A stretch of DNA of 64,000 nt from assembly GCA_030765685.1 (NCBI GenBank), contig JAVCCB010000013.1:4761-68760 (forward strand), given 5' to 3'. Shown here piece after piece: positions 1,772 through 17,684 of the stretch. Each line of letters opens with the position of its first letter. Position 1 is the first letter of the stretch. The translations under genes and the position numbers were made by a program. Origin of the DNA: Candidatus Tantalella remota. GTDB lineage: Bacteria > Omnitrophota > Gorgyraeia > Tantalellales > Tantalellaceae. Under the pieces are notes generated by a model that made no database searches, was not told where the DNA came from, and was given only the letters and a program-made list of their open reading frames with translations.

Positions 1772-2007
1772 CCACGTAAAAAGAATATTCCCTAATTGAG
1801 GGCATCCGCCTCAATAGTCCATAAAGAACTTAAAAAGTACCCATACAAGAAATAGGGAATAGTCGACGGACCCCAGCCTGTCCGCCGTAGTCTTGACGAA
1901 GGCGGGACGATGGCCCTCCTATCATCCCGAGCGAAGTCGAGGGATCTAACACGTTGTTATTCAGGGAAGGATTCCCCTTAATGAAATATCCATGCCAATT
2001 GCTGAAT

Positions 2008-2185
2008 ACCCCCGCATTTATAACCTAAATTGTAAACTGGAAACTGTGAACAGTGCGAGATCTAGTAGCTTTTAGATCTGTGTTCAACATATGAGTGTTC
2101 TGTTTGCTGTTCACGGTTCACTACTTTTTTCATAAAAATAGGGTTGCCCCCGCAATTTTAACCAGGTTAGGTTCGACCGGGGTTT
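2008..2185. repeat. Conserved ~180 bp upstream element 'L', copy 1, directly 5' of giant ORF 1. It carries nested palindromes and a TAACCAGGTTA motif.
   Basis: Near-identical to 10248..10445. Shared core: tataacctaaattgtaaactg-aaactgtgaac-gtgcgagatctagtagctttt-g-gttcaacatatgagtgttctgttt-ctgtt-acggttcac ... cataaaaataggg..cccc..aat-taaccaggttag-ttcgacc-gg. It contains the inverted pair GTGAACAG/CTGTTCAC, the AGATCT palindromes and a G-rich palindrome before AACCAGGTTA. Confidence 0.6.
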
Positions 2186-2309
2186 GATGTGACGTAACTA
2201 CTTACCGTATAACTATTTACAAATAGTTAAGAAAAAAATAGCTATCAAGCTTTTTGTTGTGTTAACTCTACCTTTTTGTTATAATAATATATTAATAAAA
2301 AGGAGCGTT

Positions 2310-5300
2310 ATGTTTGATCTGTGGGACAAACATAGGAACTTAGTGAAAGTAACGGTAACTCTTGTAGTTTGCCTGTTTCTTTTGAATACATCTGGGGTCG
2401 CTCAGGAAGAAGTCCAATATCTCATAAATTCCAAAAACTCTATAGTAGATACCGATGATCTTTCTCCAGAATTACGTCTTACACAGGACGCTTTCAGGGA
2501 AAGATATCTTGCCTCCGCGACCACACTCGCGCATAGAGCTACCAACGATTATATACACAAACAGATCCCTAAGGATGGTCTCGCCAGTCTTAAGACACGG
2601 GGCGACTTTGTCTGGGTAAATGATAAAGATAAGCAGACGATAACAATAGTTTCCATCCCAGATCTTTTACGTAACACCGGACAGTTCGCCCATGTAGGGC
2701 TTGGCAGAAAGAACGGTATGCCGGTCATCTATGTTGACGACGATTATTTTTATAACGAAGCGGTTGTCGAACATGACAAGGATGAGATCTCAAAATGGGA
2801 AACAAAACGCCGTGAGCTTGGCAAAGATTATGAGGGGATGCGCGAATGGATACGGGGAAGCGATGAAGCCAAAAAGCTTGCCGAAGAATATCACGCTTCT
2901 TCCCGGGATCTTGGCGAACTCTATGGGGACGTGAGAGAGAACTACCGGGATCTTCTCGATTGGGACAATATCTATGCCGCGTATCTCGCTTTCGGTCTCG
3001 ATGAGGACGACAAGGACGTTAATATCGCGGCAAAGAAGGGCAAGACCAAAAGGGCGAGAAGTGAGAGAAGGCAGAAAGAACGCGAGGAAAGGAAGCTGGC
3101 GGAGAAGAAAGCCCGGACAAAAGCTTCGGACCAAAAAAAGAAGATCAAAAAAAGCCCGGAGGCCAGAAAGGTATCCTTTTATCGAAAAGTGAGTGCGGTT
3201 ATCTGGTTGGGGATGGTCGTTTTTGCTGTTGTTATCGTATTTAAAATAGTTGATGTGAAGAAGAAAGAGGCCATGGTCACCCAATGGAGGGAAAACGCCA
3301 GGGTTACTCAGAGTATGGAAGCTCTACATCATCTTAATGAGGATGAGGAGGCATTTGTTCAGAAAATAGTCGAAGTTTCTAAAGATTCGGACCCCAGGGA
3401 TCTAAAGGCTTCTGCCGAGGTATTTCAAAAGCTGCTGCAGTTTGCCGTAGGAAAAAATATTCGGGATCCGGAACTTCTATACAGAAAGGCATCGGGGCGC
3501 AGGGTTTTACGGGAGATGCTGCAGGGCCCGGGACCCTTAAAGGAGGTCGGTGGACACAGGACATTTCCATACGGAGACCTTGTGTACGTCAGTATGGGTG
3601 AATGGGCAGTGACCGATCATCTCGATAAAGGGTTCAAGCTGGCCACGTCGGCACTCGCCACCTGTAAAGGTGTGGTTCTTTATGATCCTGATACAAAAAC
3701 AGGGGCGCTATGCCACAATGATCTGGACTGGATATTGTCGGATACGATTGATGCTATGTTTACAAAAATGGGAACTCCCTCTAATGTTAAAGTCTGGGTG
3801 ACCGACAATGTTACATTAGAGGACCGCAAGGCGATCGCGGCTGTGTTGGGGAGTGATTCGTATGATTTTGCTCCCCTACCTAAAGCCTTTTTATTTAATA
3901 CTCGGACTGGGAAGGTAGAGTGTTTTGAGAATAGTAAAGACATGCTAAACGGGGGACAGAGAGTATTATCGGACCTGAAAAAGAGGATAGATCTGCATAA
4001 GACCCGTACCGCTCTTATGATTGAAAAGTGTTTTATGCGATATGACAGGGGCAATCCTCAGAAACAGGTTCGGGAAGGTGTTGATGGATATGCTGATGGC
4101 AGAATAGCCGGGATCCCGGCTGAAGACTTTAAGGAGATACGGGCAGTAGGGGATAAGCGTATTCGAAGGTTTCGTAAACAATTTATGGATAATTTTATTT
4201 TTGACCCGGTAGATGACAACCAGGGAATCGTATTTTTAAGGGCTCCGGAGGGGTTTAGATACAGGTGGTCTTATCACCCCGGATATGCGCGAACTATTAT
4301 TTTACGAGATGACGCGACAGAGGGGGATATTGCGAATGCCATGCAGGGTATTTTGGCGGATTCCTTCTGGCTCATAGGTATTCCGATAGAAGAATATACA
4401 GGGTTCATTGGCCAGTCAAAAATGGACCGAGGAGAATATGCTTCAAGGGGGGGGCGTACGGCATTTGGTGACGGCGAATTTTCAGAGGAAAGAAAAGTAT
4501 TTATTCTTGGACAGGAACATCTGGATCCCTACATGGTGCATTTGTTCGGGAAGCTTATATGGGAGGACAAGGACGGTCTCGAGAGTGGGCCTGATTCTTG
4601 GAAGAACCGAGAATGGCGGGGAAGTCTTGATATGATACTTGGGCACGAGGATATTCATCCCTATCTAGAAGTATATAGAAATGATGTGAAGTCGATAGAA
4701 CGGCTGGTCAGGGACAAGGGTAACCGGGTTACGGCATTGGGGTCGGAGAACAGTGGTAAATATGTTGCATGGCTGGAAAAAAGAGCTAAAAAGGATGAAC
4801 TGAAAGAGCTTGAGGGAATACTGCGCAAGAGAGGCGTAAAGGATTTCCGAAGTAGAGCGCATGAAATAATGTTGCTAACAGAGGGTCCTGTTGCGTATAT
4901 GCAGCTTACGCGGAATCCCGCGCTTAAGGGTATAAAAATTATAGGGTTAGATGACGAGAACTTAAAAAAACAGACTATGCGTGTCGTTGGCAATATGATG
5001 CGCGCTCTGGAGTTATTAAGTACGCTAACGCGTGCGAAATCCGATTTTGCCGCTTTTCACAAAAAAATTGAAGAAGTAACGGCAGAAAAGTACGGGGTGA
5101 TTTCAAAAAAAGAAAAGATGGAACTTTTAGCCTGGTTCAAGAACCCGGCAGAGAGGAAATTGGTGCAGGAAATACTGGACTCTTTGCAGGAGATGGTTCG
5201 TCTGGGGGAGGAAAGGAGTGTTATTTTCGCGAAGAAAATAGCCGCGGAAAAAGGGGACGTGGTAACATGGATGGGAAAAGCGCATATAGGGGGCACCCGT

Positions 5301-8300
5301 AGAACGCTTACCGCGAATAAGAATCAGAAATTCAAAGTTATATCTTCTCACGGAGCGTTTATACATGCAGGCCCGCGCGGGAAAAGAAAGACTATAGAAA
5401 GGGACGGAAAGTCCCAAAAGTCCGCCCCCAAAGGTTCTCCCGCGCGTCTCTTGATGACTCTGCGTGATAACCCCGAACTTTTGGTTGTTGCATGCTCCGA
5501 CACAGGTTTTACGGCTAAAGATATAACACCTCACAGACAGAAAATAGACGGCACATCATTTTCGAAGACTACCGTAAATAAGGAAATAGAAGTCCTTAAG
5601 GCTCTCGGGATATTGGTTCCCGCGGCCGATCGGTATCATTATCGTCTGTCTAACGGGATACGCGGCCCGGACTCAGGTTTCGTTAAGCGCCTTATCAACG
5701 CCGTTATCGAGATAGAACATCAGGTAGGCGAAAAAGGCGAGAAAAGACCGCTATACCGTTACAATATCCCCAAAGAAAAACGCCCTGCCGTAAAAAAACT
5801 TGTTAATAAGATCATAGATGATGAACTTCTTTTAGAGCTTCTTATCCAAGAAGAGGGTGATCTGCCGTCATGGATCGTGAATTCACTCTCTATGGTATAT
5901 AGGAGCATTGATGACGAAAAACAGAAAGCGCAGCTTCTGAACATTATAAAGGAAGGGTTTGATTATGATCTACTGATGAGTCAGCTCGAGGACCTTCGCG
6001 CGCCTCCGGGTGATGAAAGATATACCGAAGAGTTTGCCAGGGCTTATCGCGCCAGAGAACTCTTTAGCATGGCCTATGATTACAGCCATGGACCCGCGAT
6101 CTTCACCAAACAGGTTTTTCTTGACGCGATAGTAAAATTATTGAACAAACGGCCTTCCGCGATAAGGCTCTCAGACCTCAGCTATGACGACCTTTTGGCG
6201 CTTGCTCCGGACAGGGAAGATAATTATGAAAAGCTGCATATTACCAGAACTCATAAATATGCGCTTCTCATTGCGAAGGAACTGGGGCTGAGAAAAGAGC
6301 TTGTAGAGATGATCGGCCGGACAGCGGCTGTTCATGATATAGGAGGATTGGTAGGACCAATACAGGTAGGTGATATTGAAGCTACCATACGCCGTAGCAC
6401 CGAGGTAATTAAAGAATACGGCCTTCCGACTAAAAGTTCCCCGGAGAAGTCCCTTGCGGCGCTTGACGCTCTTATTAAGGAAAGACCGGAGTTGGCAAAA
6501 TACCGGCTTGGAGACGATAAAAAATTCTATTTGAGTATGGCGTACATGATCGCAGGGGCTTATGCCGCGGACGGCGCGCCAATAACCTGGGACGATCTTG
6601 AGAAGATCGCCATAGAGTTCAGTCATGAACGATTGGGCACGGACAGGCTACGACAAAACGGTATTATCCTGACACCTGCCGAAGAGTTTATTATAAACAA
6701 TCATTTCTTTTACCCGTCGGATATGATGGGTATCGAAGAGAAAGCAGTTGCCGAAGGCATGACAGCCGAAGAGCTTAAACTTTTACTGGATATTCTTATA
6801 TTTTGCGATATCTGGGAGAACGGCAACCACGCTACCCGGCTTAAATTACGGCGCAATATTGCATATCAGCCGTTCGTAAGGACATTCGAACTTTTTGGAC
6901 AGTTTTATGGAAACACCTCTGAGATTGGCCCGGAACCGGAACAGGCTATGATGCGTCTGGTCGCGAAAAAAGATCCCGCTGTGGTCGCTCTTCTAAAAGA
7001 GCAGCGGCCCGACGATTCGACAGACGCGATCAAGGCCGGAGAATACGATGAGGTAGCTGAGCTTTTGCGAGTTTCTGAAAGAAGGAACATACTGAATGTG
7101 CCTTCCGAAGAAATACTGGATATAAGTGACGGCTATGTCAGGGACCATATAGAGAGGGTCTCCAAGATCGCGCTCAGAATGGGGAGGGAAGTCGGAATTT
7201 CAGACCAGGAGATGAACATCCTGAGAGCGGCCGTGTACGGACATGACGCAGGTCCAAGGCATACACCGGAGGATTATGCTATTCTTGAAGGCTATGGGGT
7301 AGATTTTAAAAAGTCTAAGATCATGAAGCGCGAAGAGTTTATAAAATACGCGGAAGCTAAAAAAGGCTCCGCTCTTACCGAAGCACAGTTTTTTGTGCTT
7401 GATGATATATACAGGCACGGCGAGAATTTTGTGGAATATTTAAGCAGAAGGTACGTTGTCCCGCAGGAAGTAGACCTCCTAATACGGCACCATAAGGATT
7501 CTGTGGAATATGTTGAAAAGTTTGGCAGTATGAAAAATGAAATATCCGTTCCGGCGGAGCGGCTTCGCCTTCTTCTCGAGATACTGATAACGGCAGATAT
7601 GTTTGAAAACGCGAATAGCAAGCTTAAGATGCAGATGTCAGGGCAGGGGGATGTTAACTCCTTTATGCAGAGTTTTGAGGATCCGGATGTTTTCAGCATG
7701 TTATATCAAGGCAAGGGTATAACGGATATGACAGCAAGGGATATTCTTATTTCGCTTATAGTGGCAGAAGATGAAGAACTGTTAAAGGTGGTGTTTGAGG
7801 GCAGGGGCAAGAAAGGCCTTATGCCGGATGACCGCGTCTTCATAGAAGGGCAAAGAAGGCGAAAATCCGGGAGAGGCAAAGGCTCTCCCGCGGACCTTCT
7901 TGAGACAATAATGGATGATCCGCGGCTTTTTGACAAGGTGATAGGAGAAACGGGTATAACAGTTGACGGGATGACAGGGGTAAGAGGGTTTTCGCGAGGG
8001 GTTGTTCAGGAAGAGTTCAGGATACTTAAAAAATTAGGAGTTTTAGTTACTGGGCATAAGAGTCCTTTTATGCGATTTAATCATACGCTTAGAGCTATGC
8101 CTCTCGCAGACCTGAAATATACTATTAATGCCATAAAAGAGATCGAATATCAGGTGGGAAGGACTGGTGATAAGAGACCTTTGTACAGGGCGACAATTCC
8201 CAAAAGGGATATGGTGGCGGTACTGGAAATTGTAACGCGTGAGATGGGGTTTCGCCCCGAAAGAGCCGAGAGAGAGGGGGATAAAGACACTCTAGAACGA

Positions 8301-10142
8301 TTAAGGAAAGTTGTGAGGGTGCGCGAACCTTCGGTGCGAGATACAATAACCAGCGAGGAACAGATTATAGAGATCATAAATGAGGCTGTTGTTGCGCACG
8401 GGTCAGAAATTGTGCGGGCAGGAAGCATTGAGTCAATAGTTTCTTATCGGGTGCATGATCACAAGTATATGGAGAATCCTCTGACAATAAAGATGCTCAG
8501 GAGAGCGTTTTTGGCGGTGTCGACGCTTAAGGATGACGACGGGAACCATAAGTTTTTTGGTGGCAGTTGGGTGGAGGCAAGAAAGCGAGCCGGGGTAACA
8601 GACTTGATCTCAATGCCCCCCGGATATAGGGGAGTATGGGGCTGGTCTGAAGAGAGAGTGCTTGATGCTATCAAGGCGGCGTGTACAAAACATGGAGAGA
8701 AAGCAGCCGCGGGGGGCAATGTTCAGAAAATTAAAATAGGATGGAAAAGGCGGGCGACCGGGGTGGATCCGCTATTGAAGGAGCTGAAACAGGCGTACCA
8801 GGCGGTTTTTAATTCACGTACCAAGGAGCCTGGATACAGACTGTTTGATGGTGAATGGTCGATAGCAGTACGGGCAGCTGGTTTTTCGTATACGACTAAG
8901 AAAGATCTTGAGGTTTGGTCGGAGGCCAGTATCATTGAAGTTATTAAAAAAGCTGTAGATATGCACGGGGAGTCGATTTTGTTGGGGGTTCAGGGGATTC
9001 ATAAAAAATATAGTAAGGATTCAATTCCCGCTGAGCTTTCTCTTTTATATCGGGCCTGGGGGGCAAGTACGTATAAGAATTTGGGTGGCAGAGGAACACC
9101 GTCTTATTTTGATGGTACCTGGGCGGGTGCGGTCACCGCTGCGGGATATGACTATTATCGCATTAATTGTCCGAAAGGAAGTGGGGAATATATTTTGAGG
9201 AACATCAGAGATAACGAAGAGCTTTTACAAAAAGCATTGATGCCAAAGGGTATAAGAGTTTCTGCGGCCCCATCTTTTGAGAGGGGAATAAGAATGCTGG
9301 TCTCTGCCGGGATTTTTATCCCGGCCTCGGTACGTGGTAATTACAGGTTGTCCCCGATGATGCGAGGGGAGGATATAAATTATACAAAGACTATGATAAA
9401 TGCCCTGATAGATATGGGGTATAATATCAAGCTCGAGTACGAGGCTCCATATGTAGATTCCAGGTTGCAATGGCGACGGGCATTGAGACAAAAGACTCTT
9501 AACAAAGCACAGCTTAAAACTATAAAACAGCTTGCTAAGACCGTAGTGCTCGAACAAATAGGATATATGCAAAAAGCTGCTATACCGGAGGGTAAGGTGT
9601 TGTGGCATCTGATAGACAAAAGTATATTGTCGGAAGGGCAGGATTATTCTTTTGCCCAAAAAATAAACAATGCTTCCAGGAGTTCCGGTTCTCCGGAACG
9701 GATCTTTATAGTCGATGGGCGTTGGCCGATCAATGAGGTTATAGCGTCCATAAAAGAAGACTGCCCCAACGCGGTTTTTGACATAGCGCTTGGCGATCGG
9801 GAGAAAATATCTGAAGTGCCCGAATTGCAAGGAGTAGAGCAGATCAGGATGCTTGTCTTTGAGACTTCCGACGGTTCCGACTATACCCATTTGGAAGCTG
9901 TTGTGCAGGCCCTTAGAGCTCTTCACCTTTCAAAGAACAGGGTAATACCTCATCTTCTCGAGATATTGTCTGTCTTGAAGGGGAGCGCGTACAAGGGGGA
10001 AGTGCCGGATATGTCGGTTCTTGATGATCCCCGTGAATTTGCGAGACAGTTCATATTTATTTTGCCGCCGGTCAAGGGCTTGCCGATCGATGATATTCCG
10101 AAACTCAACGACCATCTTCTCAAAGTGCTCATAGCCGCGTAA
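2310..10142 (+). CDS. Giant membrane-anchored multidomain protein (~2610 aa). It has an N-terminal signal-like segment, a Lys-rich stretch followed by a TM helix, two HD-type phosphohydrolase domains, duplicated winged-helix-like modules and triplicated GxW..AAG modules.
   Basis: The ORF is continuous from 2259 to 10142. AAGGAG lies 5 nt before the ATG at 2310 (MFDLWDK...).
- Anchor: hydrophobic TVTLVVCLFLLNTSGVAQ; lysine-rich run then VSAVIWLGMVVFAVVIVFKIV.
- HD signatures: ...HKYALLIAKELGL..AAVHDIGG...LDILIFCDIWEN and ...HIERVSKIALRMG..AVYGHDAGP..HHKD..LEILITADMFEN.
- Possible metalloprotease motif: HExxH (ILGHEDIHPY).
- Duplicated ~130-aa winged-helix-like modules: ...SFSKTTVNKEIEVLKALGILV...EIEHQVGEKGEKRPLYRYNIPK and ...GFSRGVVQEEFRILKKLGVLV...EIEYQVGRTGDKRPLYRATIPK. 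Confidence 0.85.
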   Translation: MFDLWDKHRNLVKVTVTLVVCLFLLNTSGVAQEEVQYLINSKNSIVDTDDLSPELRLTQDAFRERYLASATTLAHRATNDYIHKQIPKDGLASLKTRGDFVWVNDKDKQTITIVSIPDLLRNTGQFAHVGLGRKNGMPVIYVDDDYFYNEAVVEHDKDEISKWETKRRELGKDYEGMREWIRGSDEAKKLAEEYHASSRDLGELYGDVRENYRDLLDWDNIYAAYLAFGLDEDDKDVNIAAKKGKTKRARSERRQKEREERKLAEKKARTKASDQKKKIKKSPEARKVSFYRKVSAVIWLGMVVFAVVIVFKIVDVKKKEAMVTQWRENARVTQSMEALHHLNEDEEAFVQKIVEVSKDSDPRDLKASAEVFQKLLQFAVGKNIRDPELLYRKASGRRVLREMLQGPGPLKEVGGHRTFPYGDLVYVSMGEWAVTDHLDKGFKLATSALATCKGVVLYDPDTKTGALCHNDLDWILSDTIDAMFTKMGTPSNVKVWVTDNVTLEDRKAIAAVLGSDSYDFAPLPKAFLFNTRTGKVECFENSKDMLNGGQRVLSDLKKRIDLHKTRTALMIEKCFMRYDRGNPQKQVREGVDGYADGRIAGIPAEDFKEIRAVGDKRIRRFRKQFMDNFIFDPVDDNQGIVFLRAPEGFRYRWSYHPGYARTIILRDDATEGDIANAMQGILADSFWLIGIPIEEYTGFIGQSKMDRGEYASRGGRTAFGDGEFSEERKVFILGQEHLDPYMVHLFGKLIWEDKDGLESGPDSWKNREWRGSLDMILGHEDIHPYLEVYRNDVKSIERLVRDKGNRVTALGSENSGKYVAWLEKRAKKDELKELEGILRKRGVKDFRSRAHEIMLLTEGPVAYMQLTRNPALKGIKIIGLDDENLKKQTMRVVGNMMRALELLSTLTRAKSDFAAFHKKIEEVTAEKYGVISKKEKMELLAWFKNPAERKLVQEILDSLQEMVRLGEERSVIFAKKIAAEKGDVVTWMGKAHIGGTRRTLTANKNQKFKVISSHGAFIHAGPRGKRKTIERDGKSQKSAPKGSPARLLMTLRDNPELLVVACSDTGFTAKDITPHRQKIDGTSFSKTTVNKEIEVLKALGILVPAADRYHYRLSNGIRGPDSGFVKRLINAVIEIEHQVGEKGEKRPLYRYNIPKEKRPAVKKLVNKIIDDELLLELLIQEEGDLPSWIVNSLSMVYRSIDDEKQKAQLLNIIKEGFDYDLLMSQLEDLRAPPGDERYTEEFARAYRARELFSMAYDYSHGPAIFTKQVFLDAIVKLLNKRPSAIRLSDLSYDDLLALAPDREDNYEKLHITRTHKYALLIAKELGLRKELVEMIGRTAAVHDIGGLVGPIQVGDIEATIRRSTEVIKEYGLPTKSSPEKSLAALDALIKERPELAKYRLGDDKKFYLSMAYMIAGAYAADGAPITWDDLEKIAIEFSHERLGTDRLRQNGIILTPAEEFIINNHFFYPSDMMGIEEKAVAEGMTAEELKLLLDILIFCDIWENGNHATRLKLRRNIAYQPFVRTFELFGQFYGNTSEIGPEPEQAMMRLVAKKDPAVVALLKEQRPDDSTDAIKAGEYDEVAELLRVSERRNILNVPSEEILDISDGYVRDHIERVSKIALRMGREVGISDQEMNILRAAVYGHDAGPRHTPEDYAILEGYGVDFKKSKIMKREEFIKYAEAKKGSALTEAQFFVLDDIYRHGENFVEYLSRRYVVPQEVDLLIRHHKDSVEYVEKFGSMKNEISVPAERLRLLLEILITADMFENANSKLKMQMSGQGDVNSFMQSFEDPDVFSMLYQGKGITDMTARDILISLIVAEDEELLKVVFEGRGKKGLMPDDRVFIEGQRRRKSGRGKGSPADLLETIMDDPRLFDKVIGETGITVDGMTGVRGFSRGVVQEEFRILKKLGVLVTGHKSPFMRFNHTLRAMPLADLKYTINAIKEIEYQVGRTGDKRPLYRATIPKRDMVAVLEIVTREMGFRPERAEREGDKDTLERLRKVVRVREPSVRDTITSEEQIIEIINEAVVAHGSEIVRAGSIESIVSYRVHDHKYMENPLTIKMLRRAFLAVSTLKDDDGNHKFFGGSWVEARKRAGVTDLISMPPGYRGVWGWSEERVLDAIKAACTKHGEKAAAGGNVQKIKIGWKRRATGVDPLLKELKQAYQAVFNSRTKEPGYRLFDGEWSIAVRAAGFSYTTKKDLEVWSEASIIEVIKKAVDMHGESILLGVQGIHKKYSKDSIPAELSLLYRAWGASTYKNLGGRGTPSYFDGTWAGAVTAAGYDYYRINCPKGSGEYILRNIRDNEELLQKALMPKGIRVSAAPSFERGIRMLVSAGIFIPASVRGNYRLSPMMRGEDINYTKTMINALIDMGYNIKLEYEAPYVDSRLQWRRALRQKTLNKAQLKTIKQLAKTVVLEQIGYMQKAAIPEGKVLWHLIDKSILSEGQDYSFAQKINNASRSSGSPERIFIVDGRWPINEVIASIKEDCPNAVFDIALGDREKISEVPELQGVEQIRMLVFETSDGSDYTHLEAVVQALRALHLSKNRVIPHLLEILSVLKGSAYKGEVPDMSVLDDPREFARQFIFILPPVKGLPIDDIPKLNDHLLKVLIAA

Positions 10143-10152
10143 AGGATAGCCT

Positions 10153-10243
10153 ATGTAGGACGCGAATTTTGAGAATTGTGAAGAGAGAATAGGAATTGCT
10201 ACACCATTCTCAATTCTCCATTCCCGGACACTCTGTTTTACGC
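10153..10243. repeat. Conserved ~95 bp downstream element 'R', copy 1, immediately 3' of giant ORF 1. It is an imperfect hairpin.
   Basis: tgtaggacgcgaattttgagaattgtgaagagagaataggaattgctacaccattctcaattctccattcccggacactctgtttta matches 15212..15307 over nearly its full length. Inverted arms are GAGAATTG/CAATTCTC. Confidence 0.6.
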
Positions 10244-10247
10244 CAAC

Positions 10248-10445
10248 TACCCCCTCATGTATAACCTAAATTGTAAACTGTAAACTGTGAACGGTGCGAG
10301 ATCTAGTAGCTTTTGGAGCTGTGTTCAACATATGAGTGTTCTGTTTACTGTTTACGGTTCACTGCTCCATTTTTTCACTTTTTTACATAAAAATAGGGGG
10401 TACCCCCGTAAATATAACCAGGTTAGTTTCGACCAGGTTAAAAGC
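10248..10445. repeat. Upstream element 'L', copy 2, directly 5' of giant ORF 2
   Basis: Roughly 90% identical by eye to 2008..2185, over ~180 bp. It includes the GGGGGTACCCCC palindrome and two TAACCAGGTTA-type motifs (ataaccaggttag, gaccaggttaaaag). Confidence 0.6.
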
Positions 10446-10567
10446 TATTCTAAGTCATTATTACAGAAAGACTTATATGAGGTTAAAAATGCAATAGTTA
10501 TAACTATTTATTGACCTAACTACCTTTTTGATGGTATAATGGCGCCATATTAATTTTATTAACGCAC

Positions 10568-13500
10568 ATGTATATAAGTAGCGTATATGGAGGTACGTCG
10601 GGAAAGATGGCATCAAACAAGGTATCACAGCACATTATTACAAATGTAATAACAAATATTATTATTATTACCTTCACCCTTACAAGCATTCCTTGTCTTG
10701 AAGAGGCACACGCTCTTTCGCCGTGGGCCGGTTCACAAAGAGTGGCTGTACGCCGTGCCATGCTCGATCGCGCCATAGATAATGCCAAGGTAAGCTATGC
10801 TGAAGAAGGCGATCCTCTATTGAAGGATACGAACGGTCTTCTTCTTTCGCATGGCAAAATACTTCTTTCACCTGAACTCAAAAACGACTCCCTAAAAAAA
10901 CTTAGAGTTATTTTTCATGAAGAGATCGAAGCAGTGATGCAGATCCTTGCCAGGCAGGATCGCGCCAGATACAGTCATCTTATAAATATGATCCTTTCGG
11001 ACAACGCTATAGTGACTGCCTACAGGAATGCTTTTCCTTCAAAAAACACAGATATTGTTTCCGATGAAATGCTTTGCAACGATATCATCGCCAGCGCTTT
11101 CGAGCTTCTGCTTCTTTTTGAGGAGAGCGCTGTTTCATCCAAAGAAATAACAAAAGAGGAAAGAGCGTTTATCGAAATTATTCGTCCGGCGATCGACGCC
11201 AACAAGCACAGTTACTTTACCGGGATGTTCTGGGACCAGTACGCTCGCGAGCTCCACATACGTGCGGCCATAGCTAATGGCCAGAAGTTCACCCAGGCCC
11301 GGCAGGGCACTGGTGAAGTGGGTCTGGTTGTCGGCCAGGACGATGAGAGCGTGGTGCAGGCCGATGTCGCCGCCTCTTTGGCCGAGGAGGAAGCTTTAAT
11401 TGAAAAGCTGAGGGAGGATCCACTGAGCTCTATCTTCGGACGTGATGCATATTTAGAGAACATGCTATTGGAGTTCCTGAGCCAAAATGGCGGAAGAGCC
11501 GCTTTTGATGAAGTAAGGGCGGCAATGGTAGAGTATCCGGAGAGGATAGTAAGGGTTGTTTTGCACGACCTTGTTAAAAACGGTCGTGTAGAGATAGAGG
11601 CGCGTCCTGGCAGGCCGGGGATATTAAATCTTCTTGCGGGAGGGGGAGGGGGAGATGTAAAAGTATCGCAGGAAAGGGAAAACAAACATCGTGATGAGAT
11701 CAAGAAGAGGTTCGAGGATTATGAAGGAGAAATATACTATCCCACGCCATGCGCTGATTTTGGGTCTTTTGTGATACTCGTCGCTATGTTTCCGAAAGTC
11801 AGCAGATTCGTTTACAGGGACGGATTCTATATGGATGAAGTGTCTTACGATATACCCTCCCCGAAGGACATAAACCAGGTCTCTGCGTTTCTCGGAGAGA
11901 AGCTGGCCAGGCTTGAAAAGGGTCAGGTAGCCACGCACGAGATACTGGTGGTAGACGACAGAACACTTGATATCAAAGTGTCATTTAAAAAAGCTTTGCC
12001 TTACGCGGGTAGAACTGTCCACATCAGGTATGAAGTCGGAGATATTTTTGAGAATGACAACACGTACGGCATGGTATATGTTCGGCAGCCGGGACTTGCC
12101 GGTCAAATAAGCGCGAAACCGGCTTTCTGGGAAAAGATGAAAGCTAACACTTCTAAAAATGGTCTGATCCTTGTCAGCAGTGAGTTGACTCATTTTCCAT
12201 GGTCAAGAGGCCTGGAAAGTCTCCTTGATATAAAATACGCTCCAGGAGACTGGATCACCGTTTACCGGGATCCGGCGGAGCCTTCCACGGACGAACGGGA
12301 CTCCAGGGAAGGCACCTCTTCCCGTCAAGGGGCGGGAGAAGAAGATCCGGGAATTGCGCCACAAAAGGATATGCCGTACAAAAAATGGTATGTTACCGCC
12401 CGGCATCTCTATGATGAGACAGGCAAAAAGGTGGCTGTTGAACTTGCACGACGGTCTCTCGCTGATGTGTTTGCCGTGTATTTCTACATGGAATTGGATT
12501 ATTACGAGGGAACCGGACGGCGTATAGTTGCTCATATTCCCGCGGCACCTTTTTATTTTTTCAGTATAGCATCGAAGAGCAAGTTCAAGCACGTCAATGT
12601 GGTCATAGGTAATGTTTTGTCGAACGCCCTTAAGTATGGAGGAACCGAAGATGTTACAGTCAGGCTCCAGCCGCGAGGAGCGGATCTTCATATAGAGATC
12701 GAAGACCACGGCAGGGGGATACCAGCAGAAGAGATAGGGCATCTGACAGAGCTGGAATATAGAGGGAGCAATGTCGGGGATAAATATGGATGTGGCGACG
12801 GGCTCGCGCTCACAAAAGAGTACTTAGAAAAGTTAAATGCCACAATGGATATCAGGTCTGAAGTCGGGAAAGGGACCATTGTATCCATAGATATTCCGGA
12901 TGCGTTGGAGCGCAGCCTATTGCCGGATGCGGAGACTGTACAGCATCTTATCGCAAGGCAGGCCTCCGCCGCCGGCACTAAAGCTCGACAGGGAAATGGC
13001 GAGAACGATATTTCTTCTGAGGATAAAGGGGCAACGACCGACGGTGTTTCAAATATGGAATTATATTTGTCCGAGGTGCTTTCGGTGCAGAATGGAACGT
13101 TTATGCTGCTTGTGGAACGTTTTTCGAGAGGCGCCAAAATATCGATGAAAGAAGCGAGCTGGTTAGCCGCGTTGCTTGTATGTGATGTGGAAAAACTCAC
13201 ACCGCTAGATCAAATGAAGGTTGGCGAAAGGCTGGAATATCTTGAGTTCACCATTAAAATATTAGAGGATCACTTAAAAGGTAAGCCTACTTCACGAAAC
13301 ATCAGCCTTCAGATGATCAAACGCGCGAAACTCGCGTTTGAAAACAAAGGTGCCTTCGCGCGCCAGGGAGAAGGAGAGGAAGATCCGTCGTTTGCCGCTG
13401 ATCTTTACGAGAGAACCGATGCCCAGCTCGTTTTCCCGGCCGGGTTCCGGGCCGACGATGCCAGGAGAAAAGAGCAGCTCCATGCGACTATCACAGAGCT

Positions 13501-15202
13501 TTATGAACTGCTGAAATATGAAAAAGAAACCGTATCTTTTCCGGGAGAACCTCTCATGCGGATAGATCTGGGATCGGATAGCGTAACTCTTTCGGATGGC
13601 GTAGTGTTGAGGGACATAGATATTTACGACAATCGCTTTTGTCCCGTATTTTTAGTGCCGGGCGAAGGACGGTATGTAAAAGTGGACTTCAATCAGAATC
13701 CGCGTTTTTACGGATTGTACAAGACTCTATTTTATCTTCTGAAGGGGAATGAGCTGGATCTTATTTTTCCTTTTGATTCTGATCCATCTCCAAAGGGCGA
13801 CGGGGCGTGGGATTCGTGGCATACTGATATGGATTGGCAATTTGTTGGCCGGACAAATCCCTATCCAAATGAGATAGACCCGCTTGTGGTCGAAGCGGTA
13901 ACCAAGGCCATTTTCGCCCTCGGCCTGGACGGAGATCCGGAGGGGATAACAGTGCTGGATATATTCGGTGGTTCCGGACGAATGATAGAAAAGTTGGATG
14001 GGAATATTTCAAAGAGGTTTGATGGTCTGGGGGCAGAAAAACCGGATATGAAATATTTCGTAATAGATCGTAATAAAAGCAACATTGATCACGCCCATGC
14101 GCGTTTAAGTGGACTTGATGTAACTATACTTAAGCGTGACATGACAGTTGTTGATAATATAGCCGAGGAGATAGGAAACGTGGCCCATATCGTGGTATGT
14201 GAGGGCGGCCTGACGTATCAGGTTGTAAACCGGGACGAGGCCGAACAGATCGCCGGGAGGGTCTACGACGTTCTTGTTCCCGGTGGAGTTTTTGTGGTAA
14301 CCGGATATAACCCAAGTCTTTTATCCGCCCCTGATTTTGAAAAAATAGGATTCCGTGTTTTGAATAAAAGTATTCCCAAAAATACTTTGAATTATGACAA
14401 AACTGCCCAATTCTATGTTTTGATGAAGCCTTTATCTCAGGTGACGGACAAGAAAAATGCGGATGATGTTGATGAAATAAGAAGTGAGCCTATGCGGATA
14501 AACTCCGTAGAAGATATTCCGTTCGAGGACGCTGTCCAGGCGCTTGCCGCCACTGTGGAAGACGAATGCGCGGGGTATTCCGCTCATTTAAGAGGTAAGT
14601 TGACAAATGATGAGCGGTCAGGACAGAGTCTCATACTTTATGCCGATGATATGCTCGAAGGCGCGGCCATACTTGACTTGAACAGGACTTTAAAAAATAC
14701 CCTCGGGAGCGGCAACATCTTCGCAGGAGGTAAGATAATCATTTTCGCGAGAGAGAAATCTAACGGTATTATACTGGAGAAGATGATCAACGACGCAGCT
14801 CCATCTGTGGAAACTCTGATGATCAGCACGGAAGAGCTTGCCCGTCGTAAGAATATTTGTGAAGGGGAAGAGGATGAGATAAAGGCGCTTGTCCAGTTCG
14901 CTAAAACAAAAGGGGCGAATGATATACTCGCCCTTATAAAGGGTCCGGTAAAAGACCTTGATACTGTTGAAAAACTTGCTCCGCTTGCGAAAAAACTGAA
15001 CGTGCCTGTAGTCATCATGGAGGGAGGAGAACGGGTGGTTTACTCTTTTGCCCAGGCCATAGCGTTGGCGATCACCATGAAGCAGGACGAAGGCGCGAAA
15101 GGGTGGCTTATAGTACTCCCGCCGGTCCGCCGTATTACCGACGACATGGAATTGCAGTACCAGCAGTATCACGCGTCACGCATGGCTCGCGTGGCAGTAT
15201 AA
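10568..15202 (+). CDS. Giant multidomain protein (~1530-1544 aa): N-terminal hydrophobic anchor, four RQGxGE(E/N)D motifs, a GHKL/HATPase_c-type ATPase domain, and a C-terminal Rossmann-fold SAM-dependent methyltransferase-like domain.
   Basis: The ORF is continuous. An alternative start at 10607 gives MASNKVSQHIITNVITNIIIITFTLTSIP.
- HATPase_c boxes: N box VIGNVLSNALKYGG; G1 IEDHGRGIP; G2 GCGDGLALTKEYLEKLNA ... GKGTIVSIDIP.
- MTase motif I: VLDIFGGSGRMIEKL (a DxFxGSG, RsmD-like Rossmann signature), followed by acidic D/E at the end of beta-2 (FVIDRN).
- Repeats: ARQGTGEVG, SRQGAGEEDPG, ARQGNGENDISSED, ARQGEGEEDPSFAAD. Confidence 0.85.
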   Translation: MYISSVYGGTSGKMASNKVSQHIITNVITNIIIITFTLTSIPCLEEAHALSPWAGSQRVAVRRAMLDRAIDNAKVSYAEEGDPLLKDTNGLLLSHGKILLSPELKNDSLKKLRVIFHEEIEAVMQILARQDRARYSHLINMILSDNAIVTAYRNAFPSKNTDIVSDEMLCNDIIASAFELLLLFEESAVSSKEITKEERAFIEIIRPAIDANKHSYFTGMFWDQYARELHIRAAIANGQKFTQARQGTGEVGLVVGQDDESVVQADVAASLAEEEALIEKLREDPLSSIFGRDAYLENMLLEFLSQNGGRAAFDEVRAAMVEYPERIVRVVLHDLVKNGRVEIEARPGRPGILNLLAGGGGGDVKVSQERENKHRDEIKKRFEDYEGEIYYPTPCADFGSFVILVAMFPKVSRFVYRDGFYMDEVSYDIPSPKDINQVSAFLGEKLARLEKGQVATHEILVVDDRTLDIKVSFKKALPYAGRTVHIRYEVGDIFENDNTYGMVYVRQPGLAGQISAKPAFWEKMKANTSKNGLILVSSELTHFPWSRGLESLLDIKYAPGDWITVYRDPAEPSTDERDSREGTSSRQGAGEEDPGIAPQKDMPYKKWYVTARHLYDETGKKVAVELARRSLADVFAVYFYMELDYYEGTGRRIVAHIPAAPFYFFSIASKSKFKHVNVVIGNVLSNALKYGGTEDVTVRLQPRGADLHIEIEDHGRGIPAEEIGHLTELEYRGSNVGDKYGCGDGLALTKEYLEKLNATMDIRSEVGKGTIVSIDIPDALERSLLPDAETVQHLIARQASAAGTKARQGNGENDISSEDKGATTDGVSNMELYLSEVLSVQNGTFMLLVERFSRGAKISMKEASWLAALLVCDVEKLTPLDQMKVGERLEYLEFTIKILEDHLKGKPTSRNISLQMIKRAKLAFENKGAFARQGEGEEDPSFAADLYERTDAQLVFPAGFRADDARRKEQLHATITELYELLKYEKETVSFPGEPLMRIDLGSDSVTLSDGVVLRDIDIYDNRFCPVFLVPGEGRYVKVDFNQNPRFYGLYKTLFYLLKGNELDLIFPFDSDPSPKGDGAWDSWHTDMDWQFVGRTNPYPNEIDPLVVEAVTKAIFALGLDGDPEGITVLDIFGGSGRMIEKLDGNISKRFDGLGAEKPDMKYFVIDRNKSNIDHAHARLSGLDVTILKRDMTVVDNIAEEIGNVAHIVVCEGGLTYQVVNRDEAEQIAGRVYDVLVPGGVFVVTGYNPSLLSAPDFEKIGFRVLNKSIPKNTLNYDKTAQFYVLMKPLSQVTDKKNADDVDEIRSEPMRINSVEDIPFEDAVQALAATVEDECAGYSAHLRGKLTNDERSGQSLILYADDMLEGAAILDLNRTLKNTLGSGNIFAGGKIIIFAREKSNGIILEKMINDAAPSVETLMISTEELARRKNICEGEEDEIKALVQFAKTKGANDILALIKGPVKDLDTVEKLAPLAKKLNVPVVIMEGGERVVYSFAQAIALAITMKQDEGAKGWLIVLPPVRRITDDMELQYQQYHASRMARVAV

Positions 15203-15211
15203 TAGCAGCTA

Positions 15212-15307
15212 ATGTAGGGCGCGAATTTTGGGAATTGTGAACTGGGAATAGGGAATTGCTTACTATTCTCAATTCTCTATTCCCAATTCCCGGACACTCT
15301 GTTTTAC
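15212..15307. repeat. Downstream element 'R', copy 2, immediately 3' of giant ORF 2
   Basis: tgtagggcgcgaattttgggaattgtgaactgggaatagggaattgcttactattctcaattctctattcccaattcccggacactctgtttta, the same element as 10153..10243. Confidence 0.6.
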
Positions 15308-15419
15308 CAGCAGCTAAAGCTTTGTCCATGATCGCCGCTCAAATTCCTTCACAAAACCGTTAATACGGTGTAAAATACGCTACAAACCTGGTAAACATTT
15401 AATTAACAAGGAAATCATA

Positions 15420-15575
15420 GTGATTATTATACAAATAGGTGCTGTCGCGTTGCTTGGTGTCCTGATAGGGCTGTGCTATTATTTTGACAGGCAGGCGATG
15501 ATCCTTCCGGCGAGCCTGACATTTATTGCCATCGTTGCCTATACTTTCGCGCTTACAGTGTTCCTGCAGCCGTAA
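15420..15575 (+). CDS. Small hydrophobic membrane protein (51 aa, GTG start). It is absent from the ORF track because it is short.
   Basis: Hand translation gives VIIIQIGAVALLGVLIGLCYYFDRQAMILPASLTFIAIVAYTFALTVFLQP* with two predicted TM segments. aaGGAaatcatag precedes the GTG. It lies between the R element and the HD-GYP gene. Confidence 0.3.
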   Translation: MIIIQIGAVALLGVLIGLCYYFDRQAMILPASLTFIAIVAYTFALTVFLQP

Positions 15576-15642
15576 ATAAGCCGCATGAAAAAGTGATTTC
15601 GACAGTTTTTTCTGATAACATTTTAACGGGAAGCGAGAAGAT

Positions 15643-17091
15643 TTGGATAACAAAAAACGCTATTTCGTGAGTCTGAAGACAAAAGCGGCGCTCATGGCGC
15701 TTATCGCGGGACTCGTTATTATTTACCTTAGCAACTTTTACTTTTCCGCAAAAGCGGAAAAGATCCTTTACCGATATAGCCTCCAGAGGATGAACGCTTT
15801 AGCGCAGCTCTTTGCCCTTAATGCCAGCCAGGGGAAACTTTTGCAGAACAGGGGAATAGCGGAACGTTTGTGTTACAGCGTCAACGAAGACCCTGATGTG
15901 TTATTCGCGCTTGTTATAGATGAGGACAAAAAAATATTTGCGGGCAATTACGCGGGGATCCCGGGAAGTTATTTTAAGCGCATAACGGAAGTCCTGAGTT
16001 CCAGCGAAAAAGATTTTTCGAAGAAGACGGCTATCCTTGAAGAGGAGACGGGCAACGGCGGAGGACTTATGATCCAGCCGATATATTCCGCGAGTATGAA
16101 AGCCACGGTAGGAAGCGGTTTTATTGAAGACCAGGGGTCTGTGAGGAAGATACTTGGATACAGCGTTATCGCGTTCAGCCTGGAAAATATCAAGACCGAG
16201 ATAAGGGCTATGCGGACCAAAATAGTGGCTCTTTTATCCGTAGCCCTTGTCCTGATAATAATAGTCTTTTACGCCTTGGTAACGCTCCTTACCCGCAACC
16301 TGAGACGTCTCTTGGAAGCTGCCTCCCGCCTTGAGAAGGGCGATCTCACAGCGCGTGTTAATATCCAGTCACATGATGAGATCGAAGAACTCGCTGACGG
16401 GTTTAACAAAATGGCGGGTCAGATGGAGGACTCGAACACCGAACTTAAAGACGCGCTTGTGAAGATACAACAGTCTTCACTTGAAACCATTTACAGGCTT
16501 TCGCTTGCGGCGGAATACCGTGATTGGGATACCGGTCATCATCTTTTGCGGATGAGCCATTATGCGAAAGCTATTGCCAAAGAGATGGACCTTGAGCCAA
16601 AGTATACTGAAGCTATCCTTTATGCGTCACTCATGCACGATGTCGGGAAGATAGGCATTCCTGATAACATCCTGCGAAAACCGGGAAAACTTACGCCTCA
16701 GGAATGGGATGTGATGAAGCAGCACACGGTCATTGGGGCGCAAATATTGGAGAGGTCTGAAGCTGAATTCATAAAGATGGCAGAAGGCATAGCTTTATCA
16801 CATCATGAGCGTTGGGACGGGAGCGGTTATCCGCGGGGGCTTAAAGGGGATGAGATCTCTCTCGCGGCGAGGATAGTAGCTGTTGCCGATGTTTTTGAAG
16901 CAATAACTTCCAAGAGGCCTTACAAAGAGGCTTTTTCTGTAGAGACCGCGTTCAACATAATAAAAGAAGGACGAGGGACGCATTTTGATCCAACGGTCGT
17001 CGATGCTTTCTTCGAGATCAAAGATGAGATCCTTAATATAAAGAATCGGGATTACCATCCGGAAGACCCCCGGATACACGACGAAAAATAA
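15643..17091 (+). CDS. HD-GYP domain c-di-GMP phosphodiesterase with an N-terminal periplasmic sensor and a HAMP linker
   Basis: Two TM helices bracket a ~170 aa extracytoplasmic region. HAMP-like segment: LLEAASRLEKGDLTARVNIQSHDEIEELADGFNKMAGQM. HD-GYP signatures: LMHDVGKIGIPDNILRKPGKLT...HHERWDGSGYPRGL. TTG start at 15643. Confidence 0.8.
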   Translation: MDNKKRYFVSLKTKAALMALIAGLVIIYLSNFYFSAKAEKILYRYSLQRMNALAQLFALNASQGKLLQNRGIAERLCYSVNEDPDVLFALVIDEDKKIFAGNYAGIPGSYFKRITEVLSSSEKDFSKKTAILEEETGNGGGLMIQPIYSASMKATVGSGFIEDQGSVRKILGYSVIAFSLENIKTEIRAMRTKIVALLSVALVLIIIVFYALVTLLTRNLRRLLEAASRLEKGDLTARVNIQSHDEIEELADGFNKMAGQMEDSNTELKDALVKIQQSSLETIYRLSLAAEYRDWDTGHHLLRMSHYAKAIAKEMDLEPKYTEAILYASLMHDVGKIGIPDNILRKPGKLTPQEWDVMKQHTVIGAQILERSEAEFIKMAEGIALSHHERWDGSGYPRGLKGDEISLAARIVAVADVFEAITSKRPYKEAFSVETAFNIIKEGRGTHFDPTVVDAFFEIKDEILNIKNRDYHPEDPRIHDEK

Positions 17092-17105
17092 CAGGGAGCT
17101 GTGAG

Positions 17106-17348
17106 ATGGGATTTGTTATGTCACTTGTTTTTATATTGTTTGCGTCATGCAGCCTTTACCTGGGCCTCTTTCTTTACAGCAAGCCTGAACGGGCCATCGA
17201 GTTGCAGCAGGGTTTTTACAAAAATATAAACTGGCGCATGGAACCCATTTCTATACAGCGAGAGATAAAAAGCACCAGGTTTATGGGCGTGTTCCTTATG
17301 GTGGTAACGGTTCTTATGATCGCATATGTGTTTGTGAACGGAAGATGA
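17106..17348 (+). CDS. Small membrane protein (80 aa, two TM helices)
   Basis: MGFVMSLVFILFASCSLYLGLFLY...FMGVFLMVVTVLMIAYVFVNGR. It immediately follows the HD-GYP gene on the same strand. Confidence 0.4.
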   Translation: MGFVMSLVFILFASCSLYLGLFLYSKPERAIELQQGFYKNINWRMEPISIQREIKSTRFMGVFLMVVTVLMIAYVFVNGR

Positions 17349-17379
17349 CAGGCAGATTTTCGGCCTGCGGGGAGTATCT

Positions 17380-17532: not shown

Positions 17533-17536
17533 TGCT

Positions 17537-17680: not shown

Positions 17681-17684
17681 CATC

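Follow-up and report, generated by a model that had tools for sequence, protein, structure and literature searches.

A giant protein of Candidatus Tantalella remota belongs to an uncharacterised modular family of multi-enzyme proteins in Omnitrophota

A 64,000-nucleotide stretch of the genome of Candidatus Tantalella remota, a bacterium of the phylum Omnitrophota (assembly GCA_030765685.1, contig JAVCCB010000013.1, positions 4,761 to 68,760 of the forward strand; hereafter the window), carries at 2310..10142 (+) a complete gene of 2,610 codons plus stop, the product of which is referred to here as the giant protein. Long multi-enzyme fusions are already known from Omnitrophota; the giant protein fits clearly into a modular family of some size that is as yet uncharacterised, and it presents two new domain families, one at each end of the chain. 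These N-terminal and C-terminal domains (NTD and CTD) enclose blocks of unrelated domains (cargo), each of which is closed by a winged-helix (WH) module. The giant protein is best read as a putative modular carrier of enzymes, which would be either exported or anchored in the membrane. Nucleotide positions are those of the window, and all features of the giant gene lie on the + strand.

Conserved ends and variable middles define the family

A search with the whole protein returned eight homologues, all of them large (1,438-4,322 aa), whose likeness to the query is confined to ~240 aa at the N-terminus, the WH modules and ~190 aa at the C-terminus. According to Pfam, the middles of these homologues hold methyltransferase, cytidine deaminase, PHP, metallophosphatase and HATPase_c domains, and further cargo consists of alpha-amylase with glycosyltransferases and sigma-70 region 2, and of NUDIX with PPDK (the sigma-70, NUDIX and PPDK domains occurring in family proteins P0006 and P0007). 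Similarly, a Pfam census of 36 members found starch/glycogen synthase in seven, glycogen phosphorylase in two and methyltransferases in several, together with PanB, patatin, histidine phosphatase, a 6-phosphogluconolactonase-type domain, CofD, deaminases (including MafB19-like), PHP, metallophosphatase and the helix-turn-helix (HTH) types Fis, LysR, ArsR and PucR. The carriers are metagenome-assembled genomes (MAGs) of Omnitrophota and three MAGs labelled 'uncultured Planctomycetia'.

The fetched set of 156 family proteins ranges from ~190 to 4,485 aa. Local hidden Markov models (HMMs), which are narrow, detected the NTD in 34-37 of these proteins and the WH module, usually positioned right before the CTD, in 63-70; some of the entries without a detectable NTD are fragments. 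The full arrangement of NTD, WH and CTD, which the query shows, was found in 33-34 of the 156, about one-fifth, and many of the remaining entries are fragments. The giant protein reads, from its N-terminus, as signal peptide, NTD, Lys/Arg-rich linker, transmembrane (TM) helix, a deamidase-like region with a further ~280-aa domain, WH1, two HD domains, WH2, three repeats, WH3 and CTD, so that a WH module stands at the end of every cargo block. P0002, its closest relative, is organised differently: the same ~280-aa domain followed by WH, a long methyltransferase/deaminase/PHP block, another WH, and then two HD domains followed by WH and CTD. Two cassettes of cargo plus WH are thus common to both proteins, in different contexts.

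The C-terminal domain

The CTD (aa 2425-2610; 9582..10139) was delimited by the family profile and an AlphaFold2 (AF2) model, ends in LLKVLIAA-COOH, and matches the local HMM at E = 2e-81. When 1.84 billion representatives were searched exhaustively with the CTD profile in HMMER, 370 clusters (50% identity) matched at E <= 1e-3, and 327 did so at E <= 1e-10. Among the 150 matches listed, the match ends a few residues from the end of the protein in all but a few fragment entries, and the stop codon directly follows the CTD in 15 of 17 DNA loci; in the other two (L016 and L017) the match stops short of the domain end, and these are uninformative on the position of the stop. Of 153 family proteins, 147 end in Ala, and 145 have Ala or Ser one position before the end.

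An AF2 model of aa 2283-2610, spanning WH3 and the CTD, was built from a 34-sequence alignment and is confident (predicted local distance difference test, pLDDT, 90.5; predicted template modelling score, pTM, 0.89). Three helices and a beta-hairpin form its first unit, from which a long helix leads to a five-stranded alpha/beta domain of ~185 aa, the CTD, which closes in an amphipathic helix and Ala-COOH. The CTD has no Pfam or NCBIfam family and no significant sequence relative in the PDB. A Foldseek comparison of the WH+CTD model with the PDB gave nothing at E <= 0.001, the best matches (E = 0.016) being generic flavodoxin-like folds (ArsH, PurE, TIR, SIS), and nothing significant was found in BFVD.

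The N-terminal domain

Family alignments and AF2 place the NTD at aa 50-241 (2457..3032), from LSPELRL to DVNIAA, and it matches its local HMM at E = 2e-92. The AF2 model (pLDDT 88.9, pTM 0.82) consists of two helices, a four-stranded sheet, a long helix and then a helical bundle. Conserved residues are H75, H128 (in AHVGLG, as H128-x-GLG), D143 (in VIYVD) and H155-(E/D)156 at the start of the long helix, and this His/His/Asp/His-Glu set is kept in ~26 of 31 aligned sequences. In one subclade (P0031, P0079 and P0023), H128 and H155 are lost together, to K/Q and F, and H75 is gone in two of the three, with D143 retained. Such joint loss is the pattern expected if a metal or catalytic site were lost in pseudo-enzyme members, and these three proteins look like a pseudo-enzyme branch of the NTD.

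The NTD belongs to no Pfam or NCBIfam family and has no PDB sequence relative; Foldseek found nothing at E <= 0.001 in the PDB (best E = 0.49) and nothing significant in BFVD. Minimal metallopeptidases, namely IrrE-N-like and SprT-like proteins in BFVD and EryP and DPP III in the PDB, are among the non-significant fold matches (E = 0.4-1), which is a hint only.

Winged-helix modules as a family-wide spacer

A first-pass annotation of this DNA, made by a model from the letters and their open reading frames, described the giant protein as built from internally duplicated modules, and pointed to two winged-helix-like blocks of ~130 aa. Self-comparison shows that this duplication is real, with WH1 (aa 1026-1167) and WH2 (aa 1842-1977) sharing 38% identity over 142 aa (E = 1.6e-23), and that there is a third copy, which the annotation had missed, at aa 2286-2417 (26% identity, E = 6e-12). 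With the help of the family HMM, which the three modules match at E = 1e-41 to 2e-51, copy 1 was delimited to aa 1026-1173 (5385..5828), where it begins KGSPARLL, and copy 2 to aa 1842-1979 (7833..8246), where it begins KGSPADLL. Copy 3 (9165..9560) is a degenerate terminal copy beginning KGSGEYIL, delimited by self-comparison and the AF2 model.

The likeness to winged helices is borne out by the AF2 model, in which three helices (10-19, 21-28 and 39-50) make up the core and two strands (54-56 and 62-65) the beta-hairpin wing behind it; pLDDT over these residues is mostly 85-96. Members of the WH+CTD alignment also give weak, recurrent matches to HTH_11 (6 of 34), DeoR, Rrf2, MarR and TrmB that are below the family thresholds, and WH1 weakly matches BirA and IclR HTH models (BirA-N, E = 0.0027). 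Assignment of these blocks as winged-helix modules is therefore supported by the predicted structure, and they are putative DNA-binding domains.

The WH copies are ~48% identical to the terminal WH of P0002, as against 40% and 26% among sister copies. Because the copies are nearer to the modules of other proteins than to each other, they represent an old, family-wide spacer and not a recent duplication inside the gene. The internal duplications noticed in the first-pass annotation are statistically significant, and its suggestion of an intragenic origin is misleading: they resolve into the family spacer in triplicate, a tandem-HD cassette that is conserved, and a triple repeat private to this protein.

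In P0006 (4,322 aa), the region around aa ~3400-3640 contains a CTD-like 33-aa tail, ...LPKPAPIPIDIIEHNNRLILQKLQQAA, that ends in QQAA and abuts a second NTD (LSPELRLTQ...). This junction resembles the signal-peptide junction of single-unit members (AxA|L(A/S)P). The match of the tail to the CTD is weak (hhalign E = 0.006, probability 6%), and end-to-end fusion of units was rejected as a general rule, being seen in P0006 only and there with only a 33-aa CTD tail. From this one weak case, units can evidently, if tentatively, be fused end to end.

Tandem HD domains

The conserved tandem cassette consists of HD domain 1 (HD1; aa ~1301-1510; 6210..6839), delimited by self-comparison and alignment, with H1315, H1342-D1343, H1439, H1465 and D1500, and HD domain 2 (HD2; aa ~1604-1775; 7119..7634), delimited by Pfam and profile comparison, with H1613, H1645-D1646, H1703, H1727-H1728 and D1763. 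In self-comparison, aa 1301-1414 of HD1 and aa 1604-1717 of HD2 are 27% identical (E = 6e-4), and the near-identical motifs by which the two domains were first noticed lie at aa 1493 and 1756. The tandem pair is retained in P0002, and H, HD, H and D, together with an EN pair, are invariant across the four aligned copies. The H..HD..H..D ligands of the two proposed phosphohydrolase domains are accordingly intact in both, and a relative keeps both domains with these ligands.

A profile of the four copies matches HD-GYP phosphodiesterase structures best, namely PmGH (4mcw; E = 9e-6) and V-cGAP3 (5z7c; E = 5e-4), in an alignment that spans just the H..HD stretch. HD2 has the full H/HD/H/HH/D set, in the order of the metal ligands of HD-GYP proteins, whereas HD1 has NH for HH (one His replaced by Asn, reading NNH). 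The HD-GYP signature is HHExxDGxGYP, placed behind the HH pair; the GYP motif is in neither domain, HD2 reading IRHHKDSVEYVEKFG and HD1 INNHFFYPSDMMG. Other differences from HD-GYP proteins are that the query pair has no receiver or sensor domain and that the domains are in tandem inside a giant carrier. On the strength of alignment and profile, HD1 and HD2 are genuine HD-superfamily domains, nearest to but outside the HD-GYP subfamily. The pair most likely hydrolyses a nucleotide phosphoester or phosphodiester, and the resemblance of its ligands to those of HD-GYP proteins makes a cyclic dinucleotide one possibility.

Export signal, linker and membrane helix

Signal peptides and membrane helices were assessed via hydropathy and motif. 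By these means, a Sec-type signal peptide is predicted at aa 1-33 (2310..2408), made up of a K/H/R n-region, the h-region VTVTLVVCLFLL and the c-region SGVA|QEE, with a hydrophobic segment at aa 12-30 (Kyte-Doolittle 1.84). The features of a Sec signal (positive n-region, hydrophobic core of 10-15 residues, and a small residue at each of positions -3 and -1) can be recognised by eye and in the hydropathy values. Most full-length family members likewise have a signal-like start, with K/R residues, a core that often reads ..CLFL.N.., and an AxA site followed by L(A/S)P, which is the start of the NTD.

The NTD of the query is followed by a Lys/Arg-rich linker (aa 242-295; 3033..3194), recognised by composition (16 K and 9 R, net +18), and then by a hydrophobic TM helix (aa 296-316; 3195..3257; Kyte-Doolittle 2.77) and KKK. 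The N-terminal signal-like segment, Lys-rich patch and TM helix ~300 aa into the protein, all described in the first-pass annotation, are therefore recovered by hydropathy and composition at aa 12-30, 242-295 and 296-314/316. Of the NTD-bearing members that were fetched, the query and P0002 alone have a TM helix right behind the K/R-rich linker; in most of the others the signal peptide is the sole hydrophobic segment of this kind. A Lys/Arg/Glu-rich linker right behind the NTD end (...DVNIAA) is also present in P0002 and in P0003, the latter being without a TM helix after it.

Other cargo blocks

The first cargo block begins with a possible CheD/NTAN1-like deamidase core (aa ~415-500; 3552..3809; ...ATCKGVVLYDP..GALCHNDL). 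This assignment is tentative, since the Pfam score is below threshold: aa 422-489 match PF14736 (N_Asn_amidohyd) with 19.9 bits (cut-off 24; E = 4.5e-4). The NCBIfam CheD models give E = 0.14-0.19, and no PDB sequence match was found for the region. The Cys..His motif ATCKG...LCHN resembles that of the CheD type.

The ~280-aa domain that follows (aa 725-1000; 4482..5309) is common only to the query and P0002, in which it aligns to aa 324-596 (phmmer E = 7e-18; BLASTP E = 1e-19). It has no Pfam match, and a two-sequence profile found no match in the PDB; a TIKI/ChaN/erythromycin-esterase-like identity, guessed from two G.(E/A)H motifs, was rejected for want of Pfam or PDB-profile support. The HExxH motif reported earlier (in GHEDIHPY) is present within this domain as a single occurrence, HEDIH, at aa 779-783 (4644-4658), where ~0.08 would be expected by composition. 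Inside the otherwise clear BLASTP alignment it is aligned to DRDFF in P0002, and there is no peptidase profile match; a metalloprotease site was thus discarded, and the motif is regarded as a chance match.

The third block consists of three tandem ~90-aa repeats (aa 2013-2097, 2113-2193 and 2202-2282; 8346..9155), identified by self-comparison with a joint E of 3e-14 and a consensus of WSEE.II..IK.A..HGE ... FDG.W..AV.AAG. These contain, at aa 2084, 2180 and 2268, the three GxW..A..AAG strings that had been taken for repeats at the outset, correctly as it turns out. No homologue of the repeats was found among the other 155 fetched family proteins. Assignment to Pfam HNH_repeat (PF18780) was rejected, as the whole region gives E = 0.35 and the repeats scanned singly give nothing. 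The motif resembles a homing-endonuclease-associated repeat of ~54 aa that ends in FGSW..A...AG, which is a lead only.

The gene and its genomic setting

The giant open reading frame is a real gene that belongs to a member of the Omnitrophota and lies in a single uninterrupted frame (2259..10142 (+)) that would encode 2627 aa if read from a GTG at 2259. The ATG at 2310 is preferred because of a Shine-Dalgarno sequence, AGGAG, at 2301..2305, 4 nt ahead of it, as read off the sequence, and this start also places the N-terminus in register with its homologues in the alignment. The predicted product is a 100% match, over its full length, to the hypothetical protein P9L88_01115 of Candidatus Tantalella remota in NCBI. 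The surrounding genes are those of an ordinary bacterial chromosome (PP-loop ATPase, GlmM, hexapeptide transferase, AddAB-like nucleases, glycerol kinase, asparaginase and others). A phage or defence origin was dropped on account of this context, the absence of a PHROG match to the giant protein, and a PADLOC result limited to a marginal Cas3g HD match. Rfam and tRNA scans of the whole window gave no match, and a scan of the window with the NTD, WH and CTD HMMs found no second family member.

The next gene (10568-15202 (+)) encodes a 1,544-aa protein with HATPase_c at aa 676-778 and a methyltransferase domain at aa 1130-1240; it has no NTD, WH or CTD and so is not of the same family though large and multi-domain. 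It matches the PADLOC model 'mad2' (E = 7e-9), and it is preceded, at 10511-10540, by a promoter close to consensus (TTGACC-18-TATAAT, extended by TG). Two genes downstream of the giant gene, 15643-17091 (+) encodes a stand-alone HAMP + HD_5 (HD-GYP-type) protein (E = 6e-39). Cyclic-nucleotide signalling is therefore present in the organism, beside the divergent tandem HD pair. Further along are a 272-aa open reading frame with Secretin_N and Secretin domains (17685-18503 (+)), ~7.5 kb downstream of the giant gene, a DUF1848 gene (23428-24321 (+); E = 4e-98), and an AddB/AddA-like nuclease-helicase pair (24624-30927 (+)).

Upstream of the giant gene, a 538-bp gap contains at 2036-2124 (+) a nested inverted repeat, GTGAACAG...CTGTTCAC, around AGATCT...AGATCT. 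Its fold has an energy of -28.9 kcal/mol (z = -3.2), and none of 200 shuffles folds as well. Located ~190 nt upstream of the start codon and without an Rfam match, it could act as an operator, terminate the gene upstream or form part of a 5' leader. From 2000 to 18000 in the window, GC skew is strongly positive (0.12-0.25, save 0.08 at 10,001-12,000), and AT skew is positive over the giant gene and its + strand neighbours. The coding strand is thus purine-rich, consistent with a protein rich in K, E, R, G and D.

Elsewhere, the genes beside family loci are housekeeping genes (DnaG, RpoD, MsrAB, DinB, IlvD, RNase HII and FTHFS). For instance, at locus L018 (contig JBGGHK010000100.1), the family gene P0005 (10001-17923) lies within a co-directional array of core genes in the order PolA, stand-alone glycogen synthase, CoaE, Rho, L31, RF1, S16, TrmD, RNase HII, P0005, FTHFS and Wood-Ljungdahl genes. 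As this genome has a stand-alone GlgA, the glycogen-synthase cargo of family members may be extra copies. On the contig of P0002 (L019), an ECF-type sigma factor and a zf-HC2 anti-sigma-like gene follow P0002 at 10679-11711; no such pair lies behind the query gene.

Proposed role and alternative readings

The remark in the first-pass annotation that HD domains are normally cytoplasmic correctly identifies a paradox, which holds for the whole family and not just for the giant protein. The cargo needs nucleotides, S-adenosylmethionine (SAM), sugar nucleotides or DNA, none of which occurs outside cells. It is proposed, with about even confidence or slightly less, that family proteins are exported carriers with cargo that acts in another cell. 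Export is favoured because, in most members that bear an NTD, the signal peptide is not joined by a second TM helix. In such a scheme, the signal peptide would carry the NTD across the cytoplasmic membrane, the conserved NTD and CTD would be common handles for targeting, processing or assembly, and cargo cassettes would be swapped between paralogues via recombination at the WH modules. The HD pair, with a ligand set complete in HD2 and nearly so in HD1 and with no GYP, would cleave a substrate such as a cyclic or linear (di)nucleotide, and in the query and P0002 the hydrophobic helix (aa 296-316 in the query) would add a membrane tether. The family would then amount to the effector-like enzyme carriers of a host-dependent bacterium, with nucleotide-dependent enzymes and DNA-binding domains placed behind an export signal.

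Several observations weigh against the exported carrier. An NTD is detectable in just 34-37 of the 156 fetched members, and no conserved secretion, chaperone or immunity gene was found beside family genes at the loci examined. PanB, 6-phosphogluconolactonase-type and glycogen synthase cargo is more housekeeping-like than effector-like. The signal peptide is a prediction from hydropathy and motif, and the handle roles of the NTD and CTD are inferred and putative. Pfam HD (PF01966) gives HD2 only 21.9 bits (E = 2.2e-4) against a gathering threshold of 22, and gives HD1 no match. Finally, the topology of the query is frustrated, because the positive-inside rule, applied to the +18 K/R patch ahead of the TM helix, favours an NTD on the inside. 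The ambiguous topology described at first sight is real, with the type-I anchor layout and the +18 patch pointing in opposite ways.

That anchor layout is the starting point of one alternative, in which the giant protein is a membrane-anchored scaffold of enzymes and regulators in its own cytoplasm, the hydrophobic segments serve as a tether only, and the NTD is a small periplasmic sensor or anchor; its work might be, for example, second-messenger turnover coupled to DNA binding. For the query and P0002 this reading is favoured because a cleaved signal and a stop-transfer helix at aa 296-316, followed by KKK, form a type-I anchor that leaves aa 317-2610 in the cytoplasm. All recognisable cargo is of cytoplasmic type and dependent on nucleotides, SAM or sugar nucleotides, family genes are embedded in core housekeeping arrays, a canonical HAMP-HD-GYP gene is nearby (15643-17091), and a recent preprint prefers such an arrangement for long proteins that have only TM helices (bioRxiv 10.64898/2026.06.07.730766). 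However, most NTD-bearing members have a signal peptide only, which would put cargo and CTD outside, the CTD would have to operate in different compartments across paralogues, and the positive n-regions and AxA ends look like cleavable signals and not like N-out anchors. As an account of the family, a cytoplasmic scaffold is thus on the unlikely side, if a serious contender.

An improbable alternative is a self-processing polyprotein in which the NTD, as a derived metalloprotease, would cut after sites such as ...NIAA and at unit junctions and so free the enzymes. The H..H..D..HE cluster of the NTD on a sheet-plus-helix fold, the joint loss of its His residues in one subclade, and the presence of EryP, DPP III, IrrE-N-like and SprT-like proteins among the non-significant fold matches (E = 0.4-1) would fit, as would the (A/S)-A ending common to NTD and CTD and the P0006 tail, where ...QQAA abuts LSPELRL in the same junction as AxA|L(A/S)P; processing by N-terminal peptidase domains has also been raised, by West-Roberts et al. 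(bioRxiv 10.1101/2023.11.21.568195), for other Omnitrophota giants. Yet neither structure nor sequence gave a significant match to a peptidase, the NTD motif is HE..E/K and not HExxH, no recurring (A/S)-A site precedes the WH modules of the giant protein, and the internal CTD-then-NTD arrangement is seen in P0006 only, with its 33-aa tail (hhalign E = 0.006, probability 6%). Conserved termini, a variable middle and shuffled cassettes are what a polymorphic toxin of the contact-dependent or MARTX kind would have, with ends for delivery and a middle of effectors against competitors, and deaminase (including MafB19-like), patatin, HD and possible deamidase domains are also found in toxins. Against this, no immunity-like small gene lies downstream, where the next gene is that for the 1,544-aa HATPase/methyltransferase protein with its own promoter; no conserved type V, VI, VII or I secretion genes are near, and other loci are flanked by housekeeping genes. 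Neither an autoprocessing cysteine protease domain nor repeats of the RTX, Rhs or filamentous haemagglutinin kind were found, many cargo domains serve anabolism or regulation (glycogen synthase, PanB, HTH regulators), and there is no PADLOC or PHROG match of note, all of which makes a toxin very improbable indeed.

A bolder version of the exported carrier, which is unlikely as a whole, would treat the ends as a phylum-specific carrier system. A Sec signal with a metal-binding NTD, and a WH with a CTD the free (Ala/Ser)-Ala end of which is recognised, would jointly export, dock or link head-to-tail arbitrary cytoplasmic-type enzymes and DNA-binding domains, possibly into host or prey cells; cassettes would be shuffled, and larger giants would be concatenations of units, as P0006 might illustrate.

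Comparison with known systems

Omnitrophota have been proposed to be host-dependent or predatory (PMC10066038). Giant genes above 20-30 kb or proteins of at least 10,000 aa have been studied in this phylum (bioRxiv 10.64898/2026.06.07.730766; bioRxiv 10.1101/2023.11.21.568195), and proteins of at least 10,000 aa place many enzyme domains behind signal peptides or TM helices and raise the same topology paradox (Nielsen & Lui 2026, bioRxiv 10.64898/2026.06.07.730766). The NTD-WH-CTD family is similar to the long proteins as described there in that several unrelated enzyme domains are combined with a signal peptide and/or TM helices, and in that cargo of like kind (starch synthase PF08323, HATPase_c, methyltransferases, HD, NUDIX and PPDK) is joined within one chain. 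It differs in length, the giant protein having 2,610 aa and the longest fetched family member 4,485 aa, as against at least 10,000 aa, and in being defined by an NTD, WH spacers and a strictly terminal CTD for which Pfam has no model. The accessible text of the two preprints and of PMC10066038 mentions no conserved terminal domains, no terminal alpha/beta domain ending in Ala and no WH-delimited cassettes, and a literature search on Omnitrophota effectors and signal peptides returned nothing further.

MARTX and other multi-effector toxins are like the family in architecture only, with conserved ends around interchangeable enzyme arrays that differ among paralogues. In contrast to MARTX toxins, the ends of the query are small globular domains and not repeat regions, the signal is Sec and not type I, no cysteine protease domain was found, and the cargo of the family is largely metabolic or regulatory. 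The WH modules differ from HTH_11/BirA-N, DeoR, MarR and Rrf2 domains in the KGSPA(D)LL start and in a helical extension of ~50 aa (INAINDI..Q.G..G..RPL.R), and, unlike known WH domains, they are used repeatedly as a spacer behind cargo blocks. An N-terminal Sec signal combined with a conserved last element is also a property of proteins with type IX secretion system (T9SS) CTDs and of those with sortase or exosortase sorting signals. Sortase-type sorting signals end in a TM helix. The T9SS CTD is a beta-sandwich of 70-100 aa (PMC11285876), whereas the query CTD is a five-stranded alpha/beta domain of ~185 aa and is therefore not of this type.

Significance

Omnitrophota are widespread, uncultured nanobacteria that are probably host-dependent, and their long multi-enzyme proteins behind export signals are a recognised puzzle. 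The NTD-WH-CTD family offers a tractable handle on this puzzle, as it comprises hundreds of clusters of proteins of 1-4.5 thousand residues, a size that can be expressed. Their two terminal domains fold confidently and are unlike anything described, the free C-terminus is strictly conserved, and the cargo comes in cassettes. Should the ends indeed be targeting or assembly handles, the family would represent a new way to move or organise enzymes, and possibly a new route of effector delivery. If they are not, the family would still contribute its two terminal domains as new domain families, along with a cassette of tandem HD phosphohydrolases that has a directly testable substrate.

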